From Coleofasciculus chthonoplastes F2-STO-03 (GTDB lineage Bacteria > Cyanobacteriota > Cyanobacteriia > Cyanobacteriales > Coleofasciculaceae), in assembly GCA_040222015.1 (NCBI GenBank), contig JAVJWO010000195.1:1-64000 (forward strand): a DNA stretch of 64,000 bases, in the 5' to 3' direction. Of the stretch, positions 545-13,852 are shown piece by piece. Under the pieces are notes generated by a model, which saw nothing but the letters and a program-made list of their open reading frames with translations, was not told the DNA's origin and did not search any database. The first letter of the stretch is position 1, and every line of letters begins with the position of its first letter. The position numbers and the translations under genes were made by a program.

Positions 545-3331
545 ATGAGCGAATTCAACCAGTCAGTGATCAGATCTGGTGCTGCGATCCGTGTTGGTAT
601 TTTACATTCTTTAAGCGGCACGATGGCGATTAGCGAAGCCTCGTTAAAGGATGCGGAACTGATGGCGATCGCGGAAATTAATCAAGCGGGTGGTGTCTTA
701 GGACATCGAATTGAACCCGTTATCGAAGATGGCGCATCCCAATCGGCGACATTTGCCCTTAAAGCTAGAAAGCTGATTGAACAGGATCAGGTTGCCACAA
801 TCTTTGGCGGGTGGACGTCTGCGAGTCGCAAAGCGGTTGTACCCATCTTAGAAGAACTCAACGCCCTGATGTGGTATCCGGTTGAATATGAAGGACTCGA
901 ATGTTCTCGCCACATTTTTTATACGGGGATTTGTCCGAATCAACAAGTCGGTCCAGCGGTGGATTGGTTGTTGAACCATAAGGGAAAACGTTTTTATCTA
1001 ATTGGATCTGATTATGTTTTTCCGCGAACCGCCAACAAGTTAATTAAGGCGCAACTTAAACAGCAAGGGGGGAGTTTAGCGGGGGAAGAATATGTTCCGT
1101 TAGGGATGACAGAGTTTGGCGATTTGATCGCTAGAATTAAAGAAGCTAAACCGGAGGTAGTCTTTAATACCCTGAATGGGGACAGTAATTTAGCGTTTTA
1201 TCAACAGTACCAAGAAGCCGGAATCACGGCAGCGGAGATTCCTATCTTAGCGGTGAGTGTCGCTGAAGAGGAACTGCGGCGAATTGGAGGGAGTATCGCA
1301 GCAGGTCATTATGCCAGTTGGAGTTATTTTCAGAGTATTAATACCCCGAAAAACCGCGAATTTGTCCAGAATTTTCAGGCACATTATGGTCAAGATCGAG
1401 TCACCAGTGATCCGATTGAGTCGGCGTATGTCCAGGTTTATCTCTGGAAACAAGCGGTAGAAAAAGCGGGTTGCTTTGATGTGGAATCATTGCGAGAAGC
1501 GGCGTATGGGCAAACCTTTGAAGCGCCGGGAGGGAAGATTCGGATTGAGACGAATAACCATTTGAGCAAACATTGCCGAATTGGTAAGATTTTGGAGAGT
1601 GGTCAATTTGAAATTGTCTTTACCAGTGTCGGACGCCTTAAACCTCAGCCTTGGTTGGGAATTGAAAAGTTAAGTAATCAGATCTCACCAGTGGTTATTG
1701 ATATGCTGGCAGAGGTTTCCCAATCAATTCAATATAACTGCCAACTGGAACAAAAGTCCCGTGAACTAGAAGCGGCGATGGCGCAACTGGTGACGACGAA
1801 TGAAAAGTTGCAACGCACTCAAGACCAATTATTGCAAGCCGAAGCCCAATTTCGCGAGTTACAAGATCAAGAAAAACTGTTGAAGCGTCGCTTGTCGAGT
1901 CAAATTCGCAGTTCGTTGGAATTAGAACAGATTTTGAAGACGGCGGTGAGGGAAATCTGTAGTTTATTACATATCGATCGCTGTCAGTTTTTGTGGTATC
2001 ATACTTACGGTAGTCTGCCTCGCTTTGAACCCATGGAAGTGGCGGGAGAGTTGAGTGAGAATAAGGGAGTGCAATGGAACTCGGCGGACGAACTTTTGCC
2101 AGATTTCCCGTCAATGATTCAGCAGCAATCGTTGCTACGGATTGACGATATTGCCAGCGATAGTCAGCTTAAGGGTAAGACTCGCGATCGCTTCCTGGAT
2201 GATGGACTGCAAGCTTTGCTAATTGTACCCCTACAAACTCGCAGCAATAAAATTGGCGTGGTGGTTTGTGAACATTATCAGGAGAGTCGCTACTGGAGTG
2301 AACAGGAGGTTGAATTAATTGTTTCAGTAGTTGATCAACTATCGAGTGCGATTGATCAAGCTGAATTGTATGCCCATAGTCGCACAACCGCAGCCTTAGC
2401 CACCGCCCAAGCCGAACAACTGAAGCAAGCGTTGCATGATTTAAAAGCCTATCAAGCGCAGTTAGTGCAGACGGAAAAAATGTCTACATTAGGGACATTA
2501 GTCGCCGGGGTAGCCCATGAAATTAATAACCCTACCAGTTTTATTTACGGTAATCTTCACTATGCCAAAGAATACACCGAAGATTTATTAGAAATGCTGC
2601 GGTTGTATCAAGAGTATTATCCTGAACCTGCACCCGAAATTCAAGATCACGCCCAAGCGATTGAGTTAGAGTTTCTGCTCAAAGACTTGCCTAAAACTCT
2701 GGGTTCCATGGAGATTGGGGCGGAACGGATTCGTCATTTGGTATTGAGTTTGCGGAATTTCTCGCGTTTGGATCAAGCCCAAATGCAACCCATGGATATT
2801 CGTGAGGGGATGGAGAGTACCTTACTGTTATTGCGGAATCGACTGAAAGGAAATGGTCACAATCCAGAGATTGAATTAGTGAAAGAGTATGGGGAGTTAC
2901 CCTTGGTTGAGTGCTATCCGTCGCAGCTTAATCAAGTGTTTATGAATCTCCTGGGTAATGCAATTGATGCGTTAGAGGAAGTTGTCGCCCGGAATGAGAC
3001 AAATTTTTCGCCGATGATTCGGATTCAGTCAGAAGCGCCCTCGGCTGATTATATTCGGGTGAGAATTAGTGATAATGGCTCAGGGATGACGGATGATGTG
3101 AAGTTAAAGTTATTTGATCCGTTTTTTACGACTAAGCCGATTGGTAAGGGGACGGGTTTAGGACTCTCGATTAGTTATCAAATTGTTGTAGATAAGCATA
3201 AGGGAATTTTGCAATGTAACTCTACTCCTAGACAAGGAACAGAGTTTATTATTGAGATTCCGGTGCGACAAAATTGTAAAGTTGCCGTGAGTCAGGAGAT
3301 GAATATCCGACTGAAGGCTCAAACCCATTAA
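545..3331 (+). CDS. UrtA/AmiC-like (urea/amide-binding) domain - coiled coil - GAF - histidine kinase fusion
   Basis: N-term [45 protein letters not shown] as in UrtA; GAF end [16 protein letters not shown]-box VAHEINNP, N-box [28 protein letters not shown]; no signal peptide or TM. Confidence 0.9.
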
Positions 3332-3344
3332 GGAGTTGAACGGG

Positions 3345-3430
3345 ATATGATAGAACGGGGCGGGGCGTATGATAGAACGGGGCGGTTAAAACCGCAGCTA
3401 CACAAACTAAACCCGCCTGCGCGGGTTTCA
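3345..3430. repeat. Dispersed palindromic repeat with hairpin AAACCCGC-ctgc-GCGGGTTT, preceded by a short direct duplication (TATGATAGAACGGGGCGG x2)
   Basis: Inverted repeat 3409-3428; direct repeat visible just downstream of the kinase stop. Confidence 0.6.
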
Positions 3431-4945
3431 TCTAGCTGGAGGTTCCCGGAAGTGCGATCACATTTCTGGTGACAAATCCAGGATTAACCATCTGTAGGGG
3501 CGACCCGCTTGCACTAATTAAAAACTCCCATCCGTTCAATTAGGTTGGGTCGCCCTCTGCTATTAATTGGCTAATTAATGCTAAAACAACAGCAGCATTT
3601 CAGTTTTACTAGCTGAGTGATTTCCTATTCTTGATGATTCTCTGTGGAGTTGCACTGAATTAAACTTTCAGTTGCCTTGCTCCCCATTGACTAACTTAGG
3701 AAATATCAGCGTTTAAATGGTTTGCTGCTGTTGTTTTTAGATGAGACAGATTGATTGATTTAGCCAGCGTTTTTACCTCTTCTTTTGAATCTAAACGTTG
3801 CTTTTGTATCTGTCTGATGAAGCTTTATTTGCTTCATAGTTCTACTTTAGCACCTTTGATTGAAAGGACAAGGGAATGATACGTAAGTTTACATTAATCG
3901 GGAAAAGGTTAAGTTCGATTAATTCTTCCCCGATTCAGACCTCTCGGTGGACATTCTCAGGAGTGCGATCGCGTTCCTTTTTAGAAATGCCAGATTAACC
4001 ACCTGTAGGGGCGACCCGCTTGCACTAATTAAAAACTCCCATCCGTTTAATTGGGTCGGGTCGCCCTCTCCTATTAATTGGGCGGAAATGCTAAAACAAC
4101 AGCAGCATTTCAGTTTTACTAGCCGAGTGATTTCCTCTTCTTGATGATTCTCTGTGGAGTTGCACTGAATTAAACTTTCAGTTGCCTTGCTCCCCATTGA
4201 CTAGCTTAGGAAATATCAGCGTTTAAATGGCTTGCTGCTGCTGTTTTTAGATGAGACAGATTGATTGATTTAGCCAGCGTTTTTACCTCTTCTTTTGAAT
4301 CTAAACGTTGCTTTTGTATCTGTCCGGTGAAGCTTTATTCGCTTCATAGTTCTACTTTAGCACCTTTGATTGAAAGGACAAGGGAATGATACGTAAGTTT
4401 ACATTAATCGGGAAAAGGTTGAGTTAGATTAATGCTTCCCCTATTCAGACCTCTAGGTGGACATTCCCAGGAGTGCGATCGCATTCCTTTTTAGAAAGGC
4501 AAGATTAACCACCTGCAGGGGCAACCCGCTTGCATCAATTAACAATCTCCAATCCATTTAATTGGGTCGGGTCGCCCTTTTCTATTAATTGGCTAATTAA
4601 TGCTAAAACAACAGCAGCACGTCCGATCGACTTGCTGAGTGATTTCCTTCTTTTAGTAATTCTATCTGGAGTTGCACTGAATTGAAGTTTCAGTAGCCTT
4701 GCTCCCTATTAACTAGCTTAGGAAATATCAGCGTCTAAATGGTTTGCTGCTGTTGTTTTTAGATGAGACAGATTAATTGATTTAGCCAGCGTTTTTACCT
4801 CTTCTTTTGAATCTAAACGTTGCTTTTTTATCTGTCCGGTGAAGCTTTATTTGCTTCATACTTTTACTTTACCACTCTCAAGTTGAAAGACAAGGAAATG
4901 ACATAGAAGTTAACATTTGTCCGAGAAATATTAAGTTAAGTTACG
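3431..4945. repeat. Three tandem ~510-bp units, each extensively self-complementary (candidate structured ncRNA array)
   Basis: Anchor CTG(T/C)AGGGGC at 3492, 4003, 4513 (period 511/510); units 1 and 2 nearly identical, unit 3 more diverged; nested inverted repeats in every unit. Confidence 0.95.
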
Positions 4946-5210
4946 ATTGTGGGCAACGATTGATGAGCAGGTGATCATCCTGAACCAGTCGAAAACAGGA
5001 TCAAATTGAACGATTGAGTCTCTGAATTAAGTGAAAATACTTAGAGACTATGTGCAGAACACATAATTTGTGGAGTGAGCTAAACTGCCTCTACTGACGC
5101 TGTACTTGCTGTATACCGATCGCGACTGAACTGGCAAGTGATTAGATAATGGGGTTAGTATAGCAAAGGGTATTTTTACAAAAGTTCATTCTTTAGACTC
5201 AGAAATTTCC

Positions 5211-5960
5211 ATGACGGATAGGGTAACAACGATGTCCAACGATGTTGATGCGAAGACAGATACAGATATCGAGGCGAAGACAACAGAAAAAGAAGTCCGC
5301 CTACTGCTTTACTTGTGGGATATGGGAGGTTCGGATGTTAAGAGGGGTGAACTAACCAAGCGACTGAAACGGAAAAAGGAGACAGCTGCTGATTACCAGG
5401 AGAGTTATCAGCAGTTAGAAGAGAACGGTGCGATCGCGGTTTCTCGGTATAAGGTATCTCTGGTACAGCCGAAGGGATTTCAGATGCTGGAAGCGGGGTT
5501 AAAGAGTGAGGCGTTTAAATTTGAGAGTCAGATTGGCGCGAAAACCGCGAATGCGTTACTCAAATGGATTCGAGAACAAGCTATGTCGGCGGGTACTGTT
5601 GGTGATGGCGCGGTTGCTGCCGGGAAGACTGGGGAGAGTGCGATTGAGCAAAGCTCAGCGCCAAAGGCGATCGCGTCTTATGATCAGTTTAAGCAGGTGG
5701 CGCTGGATGTCTACAATCAGCTTAACCGCGACTATAACTTAGATGACTTAGTACCGATATATCGGATACGACGAACCATTGGCGATCGCGTCTCTCGTTC
5801 CCAGTTCAATGACTGGATGCTGGAAATGCAGGCGAATGACATCTTCCAGCTAATGGGGGGAGAGGTTTTAAACGTTACCCCTGATCAATTAGAAGACTCA
5901 ATTACTCCGCCAGTCGGCAAATTGCGTTACTTTGCCAAGCTTGTGAATGCTGAAGCCTAA
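5211..5960 (+). CDS. Hypothetical protein, probable N- and C-terminal winged-helix-like domains; first gene of ATPase/nuclease operon
   Basis: 249 aa; LLLYLWD..VKRGELTKRL..YQQLEENGAI and LVPIYRIRR..SRSQFNDWMLEMQ..IFQL patterns resemble wHTH; low-complexity linker between them. Confidence 0.75.
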   Translation: MTDRVTTMSNDVDAKTDTDIEAKTTEKEVRLLLYLWDMGGSDVKRGELTKRLKRKKETAADYQESYQQLEENGAIAVSRYKVSLVQPKGFQMLEAGLKSEAFKFESQIGAKTANALLKWIREQAMSAGTVGDGAVAAGKTGESAIEQSSAPKAIASYDQFKQVALDVYNQLNRDYNLDDLVPIYRIRRTIGDRVSRSQFNDWMLEMQANDIFQLMGGEVLNVTPDQLEDSITPPVGKLRYFAKLVNAEA

Positions 5961-5993
5961 TTGAAACCGCTTGTTGTTTGTTCCTTCACCTGA

Positions 5994-8009
5994 ATGATCA
6001 TGACTAATTTATCTGTTTCACCGATTGAAGAAATCAACACCGCCATCCAAGACTACAATCCGTTCAACAGTGCAGCCATTGATAAAGTCCAAAGTGTTTG
6101 GGGTAAAGGATTCCCGGATTTGAATACTCTCAATGCTCATGCTTCTCAAAAAGTCTTGGAGATAATCAAGCAGGTTAAAACCAGCTCAGATAGTAAGGAT
6201 AAGGTAGCCACTTTAGTTGTGACTGGCGATCCGGGTTCAGGGAAAACTCAACTCATTGGTCGCCTGCGCCGTCGTGTCATTGGTGATGGTAGTGCTGTAT
6301 TTATCTATGTTAACACTGGCAAGTATGGTAACTTAAATCTGTTGAGACATCAATTTCTGCAAACGTTGATCGAGAACTTGGCGCGAGTTGGCAGTCAAGA
6401 AGTTACACAATGGCAGGAAGTGGCGGCGGCTATGGCAAATGCCAGTAATTCCAGTGGTCAGAAAACTGCCGCAGCAACAATAGTTAAGAATTTTGATAAA
6501 GCCTATGCCAAAGCTTTACAAAATCACCAAAATCTACTCAAAAAATTGAGTACCCAGATTCTCAAAATCAAGCCGGATGCTGATCCTTATATTCTCAGGG
6601 CGATTTTGTGGACTCTTTCAGAAATGTACGCCCCCTATGCTATTGAATGGTTAGCTGGTAATGAGCTAGATCAAGAAACGGCTAACTCTATGGGTTTGCC
6701 AACTAATGCTGGTAAGACATCTCAAGAACAAGAAGCAGAAGCTCTGGGTAATATACAACAAATCTTGCGGTTAGTTAGTGACCATAAACCTGTGCTGATT
6801 TGTTTTGATGAATTGGAAACCCAAGGAATATTATCTGAAGATGGGTTTACGAAAGCACAGGTAATTGCTAGGTTAGTTAAAGACGTTTACGATAACCTCG
6901 AACAGTCAGGTATTGGCAAAGGTATTGTCATGTTGACGGTAATGTTCCAGTCAACTTGGAGTAAGGAAATAACCTTTTATACTGAAACTGTTAGCTCAGT
7001 AAAAGATCGGTTGTCAACAGCAACTCAAGGAAACCCAATAAGTTTAAAACCTCTAGATAGCCAATTCATTGTTGATTTAGTTGCCTTGTGGTTGCAAAAA
7101 GAGCTATATGATCCTCGTGATTTAAAACCTCATGATCCAGTTTATCCGTTTACAGAAAGCCAACTCAGGGATATCGGTAAAGGCAAGCCGACTGTACGGG
7201 AAACTTTAGATTGGTGTGCTAAGAATTATCGCCCCAATGTTCCTATATCACTAGAAGAGAGATTTAAAAGAGCTGTTAAAGCCTCGAAGGAGGCAGACCT
7301 TGGAGATTATTTAGAGGACAATGATAAAATTGCTGATGCTCTACGTTTTGGCTTTGAGCAGTTGATAGGTGAAACATTGGAAGGGGAAACATTAACCGGA
7401 CAAAAATTACGGCAACTAACAATTGAAAGCGTTGATACTGATATCAAAGTAGTCAACTCAAAGGCTCCTGCCAAGAATCTATCAAACCAAGGTTACATTA
7501 ATTTCAAGGTTGTTGGCAATGAAGATGACAAAAATTTTGTCATTGGTGTAGCAGTTATTCAAAAAGGCAACGCAGCTGCACTAGGCGCTGGATTAAAGCG
7601 CTTAACGGCATACGAACGGTTTGGTTTAACTCGCGGTTGTTTAGTTCGCTCGAAAAACAAAAAAATTAACAAGACGACAAACGCTTATAAGTTACTGGAA
7701 AAACTCACATCTCAGGCAAAGGGAGGAGAATGGGCGTATCTGGAAGCTGAACAGATTAGACCTCTGATTGACCTGTATTCTGTTTATCAAAACTGCGAGA
7801 CATATCAGCTTACTCAAAAGCAGGTGGCAGAATTCTCAAAACCCCAAATTTTAGAGAATCCACTACTGCGAGAAATCCTCAGCGATCCCTCTGGCGAAAT
7901 TGATGCAGAGACTATCGAAGATGAAGAACTCTTTGGAACGCTGTTCGACGAATCTAGTGCTGATGATACAGCCAATGATGACGACCTGAATGACCTATTC
8001 GTAGCATAG
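5994..8009 (+). CDS. P-loop NTPase (AAA+/STAND-like) with C-terminal domain and acidic tail
   Basis: Walker A GDPGSGKT, Walker B PVLICFDELE, YPFT..L motif; tail ADDTANDDDLNDLF; 33 bp after previous gene. Confidence 0.85.
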   Translation: MIMTNLSVSPIEEINTAIQDYNPFNSAAIDKVQSVWGKGFPDLNTLNAHASQKVLEIIKQVKTSSDSKDKVATLVVTGDPGSGKTQLIGRLRRRVIGDGSAVFIYVNTGKYGNLNLLRHQFLQTLIENLARVGSQEVTQWQEVAAAMANASNSSGQKTAAATIVKNFDKAYAKALQNHQNLLKKLSTQILKIKPDADPYILRAILWTLSEMYAPYAIEWLAGNELDQETANSMGLPTNAGKTSQEQEAEALGNIQQILRLVSDHKPVLICFDELETQGILSEDGFTKAQVIARLVKDVYDNLEQSGIGKGIVMLTVMFQSTWSKEITFYTETVSSVKDRLSTATQGNPISLKPLDSQFIVDLVALWLQKELYDPRDLKPHDPVYPFTESQLRDIGKGKPTVRETLDWCAKNYRPNVPISLEERFKRAVKASKEADLGDYLEDNDKIADALRFGFEQLIGETLEGETLTGQKLRQLTIESVDTDIKVVNSKAPAKNLSNQGYINFKVVGNEDDKNFVIGVAVIQKGNAAALGAGLKRLTAYERFGLTRGCLVRSKNKKINKTTNAYKLLEKLTSQAKGGEWAYLEAEQIRPLIDLYSVYQNCETYQLTQKQVAEFSKPQILENPLLREILSDPSGEIDAETIEDEELFGTLFDESSADDTANDDDLNDLFVA

Positions 8010-8020
8010 GAACATAAATT

Positions 8021-9463
8021 ATGCTGCCAATCGCCCTACGTCTACCTGCCCCAGATATTAAAGCCTTAATCGAAGGACGCTCAATTGCCATTATCCCTCG
8101 GATATTCGTCAATCCAGGACGACAATTTGCTCTCTATCCCTCAGATACCTCCACTAACGCTCTGCCTATCGAACAATATTATCGCTCAAATTTTATCCCC
8201 ACCGCCCAAAAAAGTCTGGCTGAACTCGGTTCTGAAACCGTTCTAATTAAAGCCTGGGCAAAATGCGAACGGTGTCAAGTCTTGGATGATTCCGAATCCC
8301 TTGATTTTCTATCTCAGCTAACTGTATGGACAAAAGCCGGATTAGAGCAAACTCGTGTAAAACGAGGTCATATTTTTTTAGCCTACCTGCGGGTTTATCG
8401 ACTCCCGCAACCGATGGAAATTCCGGTTCATCCGAGTCCCCGATTTATACCTCTCCCCCAACCTTTAACCGTGACTCAAAATACACCTGTTTTGAGTCAG
8501 ACATGCTTTGAACAGCGCTGTCGCCAGATGGAAGAACGACAGCCGCCTCAGCATCCAGAATTGGAAGAATTACAGAGTGCGATCGCGCTATTATCAAACC
8601 ATAATCTAGCGGCTAAAGAACTTGACCAAGATATCAAACAATTCTTGGGATGGAATAGCCAATCAATCGTGAGATTTGACTCTGATTTCATCTGGATTAA
8701 AACAATCGCCGATGTCGGCAACTCTAGCGATGGTCATCAATTTGAAAAACTGGTACGGAAAAGCTTACTAAAACTAGGATTTACCAACTCTAGAAATGAC
8801 CCCAAAGCCAGCCTAAATCCAGAAGCAACTGGTGGTGCTGGCGGGATTGACTTTTATGCAGATGCACCTTATCCCATCGTTGGCGAATGCAAAGCCACCA
8901 AAAGTGAAATAGTACCCAGTAAAACTCCGGGACAATTAATCCAACTGGGGAACAATCATCTCCAACAAGATTATGCTCCTTGTCTCAAACTCATTGTCGC
9001 CGCCGGTGAATTAACCCCAGATGCTTTACGAACAACTTTAAATAATCAGATTAGCGTGATTCGTCCAGAAACTCTCCAACATCTCGTAGAATTGCAAGCC
9101 CAATATAATGGTGCTATTGACTTGCTGAAACTCAAAGCCTGCTGGCAAAATGCTTATGGGTTAGCCGATGATAAAATTGAGCAATACCTAGTAAAAGTGC
9201 GTCAAGACATCGCCGTGCGATCGCACATCGTTCAATCTGTTAAATCCTTACAAGAAAATGCCAGGTTAGGCGAAGTGGAAGTTGGTCAAATTTATGGCAC
9301 GTATATCGGTTCGAGTCCGCCCAAACCCTTAATGCCAAATGAATTGCGTGATATTCTCATTGAACTATCCTCCCCCTTAATAGGCTACTTAGGGAGAAAT
9401 AAGGGTAATGAATCGAACAGCGATCGCTTCTATTTCCTGCGCGATTTACCCCAGATTCATTAA
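8021..9463 (+). CDS. DUF1802-like N-terminal domain fused to a PD-(D/E)XK restriction-endonuclease-like domain
   Basis: ALIEGRSIAII and LAYLRVYRLPQP..PVLS as in DUF1802; FEKLVRKSLLKLGF..GGAGGIDF..IVGECKAT is a Mrr-like catalytic motif; 11 bp after the ATPase. Confidence 0.8.
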   Translation: MLPIALRLPAPDIKALIEGRSIAIIPRIFVNPGRQFALYPSDTSTNALPIEQYYRSNFIPTAQKSLAELGSETVLIKAWAKCERCQVLDDSESLDFLSQLTVWTKAGLEQTRVKRGHIFLAYLRVYRLPQPMEIPVHPSPRFIPLPQPLTVTQNTPVLSQTCFEQRCRQMEERQPPQHPELEELQSAIALLSNHNLAAKELDQDIKQFLGWNSQSIVRFDSDFIWIKTIADVGNSSDGHQFEKLVRKSLLKLGFTNSRNDPKASLNPEATGGAGGIDFYADAPYPIVGECKATKSEIVPSKTPGQLIQLGNNHLQQDYAPCLKLIVAAGELTPDALRTTLNNQISVIRPETLQHLVELQAQYNGAIDLLKLKACWQNAYGLADDKIEQYLVKVRQDIAVRSHIVQSVKSLQENARLGEVEVGQIYGTYIGSSPPKPLMPNELRDILIELSSPLIGYLGRNKGNESNSDRFYFLRDLPQIH

Positions 9464-9515
9464 GATAAAAAAATCTTGTGTAAGTACAGATAGAGGATAG
9501 GCGTAAGTCTCCTAT

Positions 9516-10322
9516 CTAAACTCTAAAAGGGAAACTTCCATTTTCACAAAAGCCAGGGGTAAGAAAATGCAGAGTCGCCAAAACACCCAGAATCGCACTG
9601 ACAATTATACCTGTAGCAATTCGTTTAATTCGTACAAACTGGGCAAGCTGACTCGCCCAAATATATTCTCGGTGTTCTTGAAGTGGCAAGGGTGTATTGT
9701 TATCCGATGCAGCCAACCAAGCTGTTGCTTCCCACAGTTGTTTACCGTGTAGCAAATAGCTGTGATCCCGATCATGAGACACCCAATCCCGCCAGAGTCC
9801 ATAGAATTTAGTATGCAATCTGGCGTCTTCTGGATTAATATTGAGAGAATTCAATAATTTGGTTAAGCAAACCTCAAAATCCTCTTCGGGAGTAAAAAAC
9901 ATCCAGTTTATGGATCGCAAAGATAAGGGAACTGAATCAGGTTGCTCAATCACAATCGGGAAAATTCGTTTACCTTGACTTAAAGCATACTCTAACTCTT
10001 GACCACAAACCTTAGATATCGCTGAGTTAGGCGTTAGCATAAATAGAAAGTAATCCGAATCTTCAATCCCTCGCTTAATTTCCTCCCACCACTCAACCGC
10101 TGGTGGAATATCTTCCCAATCCACCCAGATTTCATAATTCGGAGATAGAGCCGCGTAGAGTTTTTCAACGAATACTTTGTCCTTGTGGGAGTAAGAGAAA
10201 AATAGCCTACTCTCACGCTCTTGAATGTCCGGTTTTCGCCAACTCTCTTTGAGTAAAAACAGCAGGCTTTTGAGAAAACGCGGGGGAGAAGAAGAAGGAC
10301 TTGGAGTTTGAATGCTAGTCAT
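9516..10322 (-). CDS. TIR (TIR_2-type) domain protein with C-terminal transmembrane helix
   Basis: LFFSYSHKD, WVDWEDIPP..W.EEI..GI, SKVCGQELEYA, SLRSINW; LLHGKQLWEATAW motif; hydrophobic IATGIIVSAILGVLATL; ATG at 10322 preferred over GTG at 10370. Confidence 0.85.
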   Translation of the reverse strand: MTSIQTPSPSSSPPRFLKSLLFLLKESWRKPDIQERESRLFFSYSHKDKVFVEKLYAALSPNYEIWVDWEDIPPAVEWWEEIKRGIEDSDYFLFMLTPNSAISKVCGQELEYALSQGKRIFPIVIEQPDSVPLSLRSINWMFFTPEEDFEVCLTKLLNSLNINPEDARLHTKFYGLWRDWVSHDRDHSYLLHGKQLWEATAWLAASDNNTPLPLQEHREYIWASQLAQFVRIKRIATGIIVSAILGVLATLHFLTPGFCENGSFPFRV

Positions 10323-10456
10323 TTGACATCCAGAAGTATACGATAAAGCTTGAATGATTGGATACTTCACCGCAACCCGTAAATTTTCCGGTTTTTGTTA
10401 AACTTTCTTTATGTTCTTGAGATAATAACTCGTGATGTATTAATTTTATCTAAGTT

Positions 10457-10805
10457 CAGGGAACAGGGAACAGGGAACAGGGAACGGTTTTCATCGCTTG
10501 AACCCTATTACCTGAAGGGGTGACAAGCTCGCGTCAAAGGTGTGGGGTATGGGGTGTGGGGAAAATCGGTAAGAAACACAAAAGCCCATAAGAGGAGATA
10601 GGGTAAGGAGCGAGCGCTCTTTCTGGCGAGCCAACGAATAAACAATTTTGGTGACTCAATAGGAGTGACTCCCTGAGTTTAGTTCAATTTTTCCCTACAC
10701 CCTACACCCTATACCCTACACCCTACACCCAGTTATGTAGGGTGGGTTAGGCGGGACTTAAAGTCAGGCAATAAACCTTTAATCGACTATCCGCCGTAAC
10801 CCACC
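10457..10805. repeat. Cluster of small repeats: (CAGGGAA)4, a ~190-bp unit bounded by inverted heptamer tracts (GGGGTGT.. / ..CCCTACA), and a GTAG REP-like palindrome
   Basis: Tracts at ~10457-10486, ~10539-10561, ~10693-10730; GTAGGGTGGGTTAGGCGG...CCGCCGTAACCCACC at ~10737-10805. Confidence 0.65.
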
Positions 10806-13702: not shown

Positions 13703-13852
13703 AAATGATCAATGACTAGAAAAGAGTTTTATGTGTAGGGGCGGGTTTCACTACTATCGTTTTTTGCCCACCCTAATGTCACTAAACCCGCCCTGCCTAA
13801 ATGACCAATGACCAATGACCAATGACCAATGACCAATGACCAATGACCAATG
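13703..13852. repeat. Composite GTAG REP (GTAGGGGCGGGTTT...AAACCCGCCC) plus STRR tract (ATGACCA)n
   Basis: REP ~13735-13793; heptamer tract ~13801-13852; inverted copy at 14855-15027. Confidence 0.85.

Follow-up and report, generated by a model that had tools for sequence, protein, structure and literature searches.

Tandem PmgR1/Ncr0700-family small RNA genes beside a restriction-like operon and a TIR gene in Coleofasciculus chthonoplastes F2-STO-03

A window of 64,000 nucleotides of the cyanobacterium Coleofasciculus chthonoplastes F2-STO-03 (assembly GCA_040222015.1, contig JAVJWO010000195.1, positions 1 to 64,000 of the forward strand) was analysed around positions 3431-10370, where three repeated units, a three-gene operon and a TIR gene follow each other. 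An earlier annotation made from the sequence alone, called here the original prediction, had considered them as a candidate defence locus in which RNAs encoded by the repeats may regulate, scaffold or guide an ATPase-nuclease complex. Our results are best explained, with a probability of about 85%, by three independent things lying side by side: a triplet of genes of the small RNA (sRNA) family PmgR1, a restriction-like operon that is widespread but unstudied, and a TIR gene that occurs only sporadically. On sequence grounds, the three window repeats are tandem copies of a PmgR1/Ncr0700-family sRNA gene.

The structured triplet of about 510 bp announced by the original prediction holds: the three units are spaced by 510 and 512 bp (n = 3 units), blastn gives 92% identity over 512 nt between units 1 and 2 and 84% over 487 nt between units 1 and 3, and on either strand unit 1 outperforms all of 100 shuffles in folding (z = -5.8 for the minus and -6.8 for the plus strand). 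In aligned homologues, conservation is confined to a core of about 315 bp per unit, which consists of the RNA and its promoter on the minus strand. Outside this RNA, the units carry a hairpin of about 70 bp, without assigned strand, which we take to be REP-like (3491..3562, and again at about 4002-4072 and 4512-4583). With 151 blastn hits across 76 contigs, the hairpin is a repeat dispersed over the whole genome; the remainder of the unit has only three high-identity occurrences there.

The presence of the RNA in 38 of the 52 genomes of the family and in 256 of the 401 genomes of the order pointed to a known sRNA. The 251-nt sequence of ncr0700 is printed in the supplement of PMC6596454, and our locus L205 reads, by eye, letter for letter as the published one. 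A motif derived from ncr0700 was found in 8 of the 14 genomes of one genus (the PmgR1-type genus), with one match per genome, and in genome G073 it falls within the blastn hit of the window element. Profile A2 of the element, which contains no PmgR1-type sequence, matched L205 over model positions 13-271 (E = 5e-11), spanning the -10 element and the 5' end, and scored 37.9 bits, while none of 500 shuffles exceeded 9.6 bits. When both Coleofasciculus and the PmgR1-type genus were excluded, a profile of the remaining 82 rows recovered the three window units (E <= 3e-58) and five PmgR1-type loci (4e-12 to 1.6e-25), with E = 1.5e-13 for L205.

The likeness to PmgR1/Ncr0700 (DsiR1) of Synechocystis sp. 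PCC 6803 extends to collinear motifs over the full length, the same 5' end, a similar size, -35 and -10 elements at the same distance and the same closing stem. The features expected of a family member (about 250 nt, an own promoter, the same 5' end, a conserved structure and no conserved open reading frame, ORF) are all found, with the start placed by alignment. The window copies differ from L205 by the lack of two insertions, and the source genome differs from the PmgR1-type genus, with its single motif match per genome, by three tandem and five dispersed copies.

In published work, PmgR1 is one of the most abundant sRNAs of Synechocystis, is processed by RNase E, and has targets and a mechanism stated as unknown (PMC8682795); it sediments in fractions 8-9, near the RNase P RNA at 9-10 (PMC12475003). 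Ncr0700 is also described as the dominant sRNA of cells in the dark, in stationary phase and under heat, and as acting downstream of PmgA in glycogen control, and a screen of 202 genomes gave 34 Ncr0700 homology hits within its search regions. The literature consulted also included PMC5386190, PMC12873609, PMC6693541, PMC10939160, PMC11622646, PMC8195603, PMC12707154, PMC6166021 and bioRxiv 2020.07.02.184192.

The predicted RNA genes lie on the minus strand at 3583..3837 (copy 1, with a start placed by alignment to the published 5' end), 4093..4347 (copy 2, a recent duplicate of copy 1, 97%) and 4605..4859 (copy 3, of the operon-proximal type). The aligned homologues show about 255 nt of conserved RNA sequence following a conserved promoter, made of a -35, an extended -10 and an upstream repeat. 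The promoter of copy 1 (3838..3895, minus) has its extended -10 at 3844-3849, its -35 at 3866-3871 and an HLR1-like repeat at 3878-3895; those of copies 2 and 3 are at 4348..4405 and 4860..4917 on the same strand, the last one being back to back with the operon and having a more degenerate upstream repeat. In units 1 and 2 the HLR1-like direct repeat (14/16) is centred about 50 nt upstream, and the fit is worse in unit 3. According to PMC6525291, whose main text does not mention ncr0700, this is the activating position of the HLR1 motif. The match is a lead only, and RpaB might bind this repeat.

Copy 1 comprises, in order, a 5' hairpin, a stem with an AAGAGGU loop and a long rod closing on a U run. 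A structure of 65 pairs was drawn by hand from the consensus and scored on five measures against 500 shuffles and slid controls. It pairs 91.9% of 2395 cells (34-47% in the slid controls), and no shuffle out of 500 was as high on four of the measures (88 of 500 on the fifth). Double-sided changes affect 18 of the 65 pairs, the covariation being located in the 3' rod, and the excess of G-U over A-C pairs (174 versus 50) favours the minus strand. At least 5 nt of the Shine-Dalgarno (SD) sequence (GAGGU or AGGAG) are kept in the loop of the second stem of 36 of 37 copies. An Rfam 15 scan gave no match on the units and one 24-nt match, below the gathering score, outside them.

Contigs from RNA libraries of four studies lie on the units; such contigs are uninformative on strand, transcript ends and abundance, and some may derive from DNA. 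The share was 0.20 or less in 20 of 24 library runs, and those 20 are counted as no evidence. In library X2 the word depth is 114-225 inside the RNA bodies. On the operon, long pieces are absent from libraries X1, X2 and X7, and X8 covers nearly all of it, a comparison that ranks nothing, as the data are contigs and the repeat itself served to find the runs.

By profile, the source genome (G000) has eight RNA copies, three in the window and five dispersed on other contigs (loci L081-L085 on C197, C203, C46, C42 and C181). Three of these five resemble the PmgR1-type profile more closely than the copies of the window do. The genes neighbouring the RNA are unrelated among loci. In the tree, copies of the source genome are deeply diverged (branches of 0.6-0.8) and copies of one array mostly cluster, which indicates that duplication happened repeatedly; units 1 and 2 form a recent pair (97%), and unit 3 groups with the operon-proximal copies of seven congeners (100/99) in a clade of the genus' own. 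Several dispersed copies have long branches, and their placement was not used. Tandem RNA arrays occur in other families as well, with a triplet in G568, pairs in G461 and in G530, and about ten full or partial copies at a spacing of about 340 bp in G520 (L200:4200-7632, contig C3); several of the G520 copies have near-consensus -35 and -10 elements. At L013, L016, L017, L018 and L024 the RNAs form inverted divergent pairs, several of which flank a conserved gene of about 105 aa and/or a cupin-like gene. No RNA match was found in the phage collection, and the matches in the plasmid collection are partial and belong to three Nostoc records.

The literature searched, which did not include the original PmgR1 paper, described no tandem PmgR1 array, and prior notice of these homologues is possible. 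The seven-repeat array of Trichodesmium erythraeum, as reported by Pfreundt et al. 2014 (PMC4143802), is alike in being tandem, in having a start of its own in each repeat and in producing an RNA of about 260 nt, and it accounts for 44.7% of the transcription start site (TSS) reads. It is unlike the window array in that its repeats measure 736-973 bp, and its authors found no similar sequence. Compared by description only, the Trichodesmium array fits the PmgR1 family. We give even odds to the wider proposal that PmgR1 RNAs, with their SD-like loop, form a family present across the order and amplified in dose, to which the most abundant Trichodesmium RNA, that of the array, would also belong.

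The linkage of the RNA to the operon was assessed with two profiles at full sensitivity in 117 operon loci (1.27 Mb, some genomes being included twice). The RNA stood beside the operon in seven of them, namely 7/7 Coleofasciculus and 0/110 others; upstream of operon homologues, where the original prediction suggested testing for it, the repeat was not recovered outside the genus. Among the 73 non-Coleofasciculus loci from GTDB, 68 include at least 700 bp upstream, the distance of the nearest copy in Coleofasciculus. Four RNA-bearing genomes of one genus (G232, G161, G073 and G194) gave no match to the winged helix-turn-helix (wHTH) or nuclease profile, and in G520 the RNA array is on contig C3 and three operon copies are on C7. 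No complementarity between RNA and operon is longer than 10-11 nt. The adjacency of RNA and operon is read as inherited synteny of one genus. The original prediction had itself named, as findings that would speak against it, a repeat scattered through the genome, a lack of co-occurrence with operon homologues, a missing transcript and a match of the operon to a described system with no RNA component. By these standards it is largely refuted: the repeat is dispersed and of a known metabolic sRNA family, the co-occurrence is limited to Coleofasciculus, and the operon matches no PADLOC or NCBIfam system above cut-off.

The operon itself is as described at the outset, with three ORFs separated by gaps of 33 and 11 bp and converging on the TIR gene. 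The first gene (5211-5960, plus strand) encodes a 249-aa protein with an N-terminal winged-helix-like region and a conserved C-terminal domain. Its wHTH label stands in part: the protein has no Pfam hit of its own, and a winged-helix family is hit by 7 of its 32 aligned homologues. It is a probable partner of the ATPase. Prediction of the wHTH-ATPase complex passed weakly, with a score of 0.50 against 0.00 for the best control, a contact agreement of at least 69% between runs and a partner pLDDT of at least 72; the mark is reached by 116 of 157 solved complexes and by 2 of 215 mismatches, both at 0.60 or less.

The second gene (5994-8009, plus) encodes a 671-aa ORC/Cdc6-like, STAND-related AAA+ ATPase whose model (pLDDT 84) has ORC/Cdc6 as its closest fold (E = 1.8e-5) and in which the Walker residues are conserved, G81, G83, K84, F271 and D272 being invariant in 33/33 sequences. 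The third (8021-9463, plus) encodes a nuclease of 480 aa with a DUF1802, ASCH/PUA-like region (1-159), a FokI-like PD-(D/E)XK domain (220-386) and a winged helix (394-480). AAA_16 and DUF1802 pass the Pfam cut-offs, and Mrr_cat is just below (19.3 versus 21). In the nuclease model (pLDDT 87), residues 1-159 superpose on 6kir (Z 10.0, rmsd 3.4, 138 aligned) and the catalytic domain on FokI (Z 14.7, rmsd 2.6, 148 aligned); ASCH entries are among the Foldseek matches, and D277, E289 and K291 are invariant in 47/47 sequences.

As the original prediction had supposed, the operon matches no named system of PADLOC or NCBIfam above cut-off. In PADLOC 2.0 the wHTH protein and the nuclease match no family and the ATPase has a best E of 1e-4, and the NCBIfam 20 hits of the operon are all below cut-off. 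A PDB sequence search with profiles of the three proteins gave nothing below E = 0.001, the ESM Atlas search returned only unnamed cyanobacterial clusters, and literature searches on DUF1802 and on ASCH/PUA restriction with an ATPase in cyanobacteria found no description of this operon.

Matches to the 249-aa protein occur in 85 of the 401 phylum genomes, mostly once per genome and concentrated in few families; its relatives with 79-96% identity are those of Coleofasciculus. Of 80 operon loci from GTDB, several of which are truncated by contig ends, 79 encode a member of the ATPase family and 72 one of the nuclease family; the three-gene operon is, judged by these homologues, conserved across filamentous cyanobacteria. 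No fourth gene is common across genera in the 80 loci, whose neighbours were clustered without annotation, an observation that bears on whether the module, like type IV systems, lacks a cognate methyltransferase. In eight congeners (L061-L068), the ATPase is 88-94% identical in four and 37-38% in four, for flanking genes of 79-96%.

Several variants were seen beside this common form. Extra ATPase copies occur at L033, L095 and L139. A paralogous operon of the source genome (L086:824-6468, G000:C169) encodes a 293-aa wHTH-like protein, a 658-aa ATPase and an 863-aa effector, the latter being a fusion of 3'-5' exonuclease, PD-(D/E)XK and FtsK, so that the core is the same and the effector different. 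In G520 (C7:58270-72091, L212-L217), three wHTH-ATPase-nuclease copies are in tandem with extra wHTH fragments. A family which we take to be Uma2-like is downstream of the nuclease in 30 of the 80 loci (L095-L164), mostly in Microcoleus.

Taken from folds and motifs, the operon looks like a type-IV-like restriction module. Like the type IV PUA-reader enzymes MspJI, VcaM4I and TagI, as reviewed in the literature, it fuses a PUA/ASCH-like domain to a PD-(D/E)XK nuclease, and the models contain both the PUA-superfamily reader domain and the intact nuclease of that type; like McrBC, it has an NTPase and nuclease design, the NTPase partner being encoded here in the operon. It is unlike these enzymes in its DUF1802/ASCH reader, in the C-terminal winged helix of its nuclease, in its ORC/Cdc6-like NTPase with a wHTH partner and in the lack of a match to any named-system profile.

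The TIR_2 protein (284 aa; 9516-10370, minus strand) has one hydrophobic C-terminal stretch at residues 251-269 and passes the Pfam cut-off. The original prediction made it the closing gene of the defence locus, which does not agree with its presence in 2 of 7 assessable congeners and in 1 of 80 GTDB loci; it is a sporadic neighbour outside the module. Its closest relatives are at least six TIR proteins of 900-1560 aa of the source genome. It resembles Thoeris ThsB by its TIR domain and by the PADLOC ThsB model (E = 5e-12) and differs from it by an NCBIfam score of 35.6 for a cut-off of 220. No ThsA is next to it, the neighbours being the nuclease and a 352-aa ORF, and no operon protein matches ThsA.

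Several observations weigh against the separation of the locus into three parts, or against its individual assignments. A blastn search from L205 gave no match in the source genome (and 12 matches in 301 genomes of the phylum, being too insensitive to delimit the range), and a profile of the eight PmgR1-type loci alone missed all three copies of the window at E < 10 but retrieved three dispersed paralogues out of five (E = 1.3e-7, 4e-4 and 1.3e-3). By these misses, the copies of the window form a divergent branch within the PmgR1 family, and their function may have drifted. The consensus promoter scan found no site, the promoter call resting on conservation, helices 1-3 and 7 have no double-sided change, and Foldseek gave no nuclease match at E <= 0.001 for the nuclease. 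ASCH domains can bind RNA, and the RNA may bind the operon proteins in trans, both parts being common in the order. Finally, despite differing outer flanks (kinase, enolase-like, gyrase-like), each of the eight congener loci retains one or more RNA copies some 0.3-0.7 kb upstream of the wHTH gene.

This last linkage, together with the proximal copy forming a clade of its own with a changed upstream motif and the ASCH/PUA fold of the nuclease, would be expected if the RNAs scaffolded, guided or regulated the ATPase-nuclease system, in Coleofasciculus at any rate, through a co-opted copy or promoter. We consider this improbable, in view of the 110 other loci without RNA, of the 4/4 tested RNA-bearing genomes of one genus without operon match, and of the congeners not being independent. 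Moreover, a kinase is also next to the RNA in another genus, in a 3.3-kb locus (L010) with no operon gene, suggesting that the RNA was there first. A guide function was rejected, as the units lack a variable spacer and their complementarity does not exceed 11 nt. The regulating, scaffolding or guiding role originally proposed is not supported for a dispersed RNA of eight copies, from a known metabolic family, that accompanies the operon in so few loci. It is slightly more doubtful still that a PmgR1 copy was co-opted in Coleofasciculus, either with its RNA bound to the ATPase or to the ASCH domain or with its divergent promoter timing the operon, to give a light/dark-gated restriction; if true, this would provide the first partner of PmgR1 and tie a metabolic sRNA to immunity.

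The many contexts of the units, their inverted pairs around genes and the embedded REP-like hairpin would also suit non-autonomous mobile repeats (MITE/REP-like) without RNA function, which the conserved promoter, the G-U bias, the compensatory changes and the deep divergence of copies within the source genome render very improbable, as does the relationship to an RNA whose mutant has a phenotype on record. The phenotype of a PmgR1 mutant was reportedly described by de Porcellinis et al. in 2016, as the title of that work has it. Tandem repeats of about 510 bp recall the LDR repeats of E. coli, and a basic ORF of 25 aa (3760-3837, minus) is intact in all three units, as if these were LDR-like type I toxin-antitoxin or micropeptide genes. 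This has hardly any probability left, as the equivalent frame varies from 0 to 53 codons across 37 aligned copies with an ATG start in only 4, the peptide is basic and not hydrophobic, and the ATG coincides with the inferred RNA start, leaving no leader; the 25-aa peptide was rejected, its ORF not being conserved. Hammerhead-like and retron-like readings were also rejected, no reverse transcriptase being seen by eye among the starts of neighbouring ORFs. For the operon, a role in chromosome maintenance and not in defence, in which the ORC/Cdc6-like ATPase would serve the replication or repair of DNA in filamentous cyanobacteria, would agree with the ORC/Cdc6 fold, with neighbours fixed within a genus and with a distribution of mostly one match per genome in few families (85/401). 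It is unlikely, since ATPase alleles are exchanged within one genus, the effector is swapped in the paralogous operon, the operon is triplicated in tandem in G520 and the best fold matches of the nuclease are restriction enzymes.

Under the preferred reading of three independent neighbours, each sRNA gene would be a self-contained cassette in which a sigma-70-type promoter drives a folded RNA of about 255 nt, transcribed away from the operon. By analogy with PmgR1, to which a role in photomixotrophy and glycogen is ascribed, the window RNA may accumulate in darkness or stationary phase and tune carbon metabolism. As to mechanism, an abundant, stoichiometric RNA could titrate a protein or ribosomal partner, tandem duplication raising its dose; we prefer this idea, at a little under even odds, because of the repeated dose amplification, the conserved rod and the sedimentation at the size of a ribonucleoprotein. 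Base-pairing on mRNAs is an alternative to which we give about one chance in three. In the operon, as modelled, the ATPase and its wHTH partner would assemble on DNA and gate the nuclease, whose ASCH/PUA domain would read a modified base and whose FokI-like domain would cut; this module would not need the RNA.

Around the locus, a histidine kinase with N-terminal Peripla_BP_5 (periplasmic-binding-protein), GAF and HATPase domains, all passing the Pfam cut-offs, occupies positions 545-3331. The labels manC, enolase, gyrase, cupin and Uma2 used for neighbours are presumed from sequence. A second dispersed repeat at 3376-3430, containing a GC-rich hairpin and giving 98 blastn hits genome-wide, is the source of the sub-threshold CRISPR-DR28 match of the Rfam scan. 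Heptamer short tandem repeats, presumably of the type typical of filamentous cyanobacteria, are found at 1-147, 10457-10485 and 13800-13852.

These results remove a false lead, that of an RNA-guided or RNA-scaffolded defence system, and leave two testable ones. For PmgR1, the alignment, the covarying structure, the promoter, the SD-like loop and the tandem amplification suggest what to mutate. The operon is a widespread, allele-swapping ATPase/ASCH-nuclease module and, if it restricts modified DNA, would matter for the phage ecology of filamentous cyanobacteria and for the barriers to their transformation.

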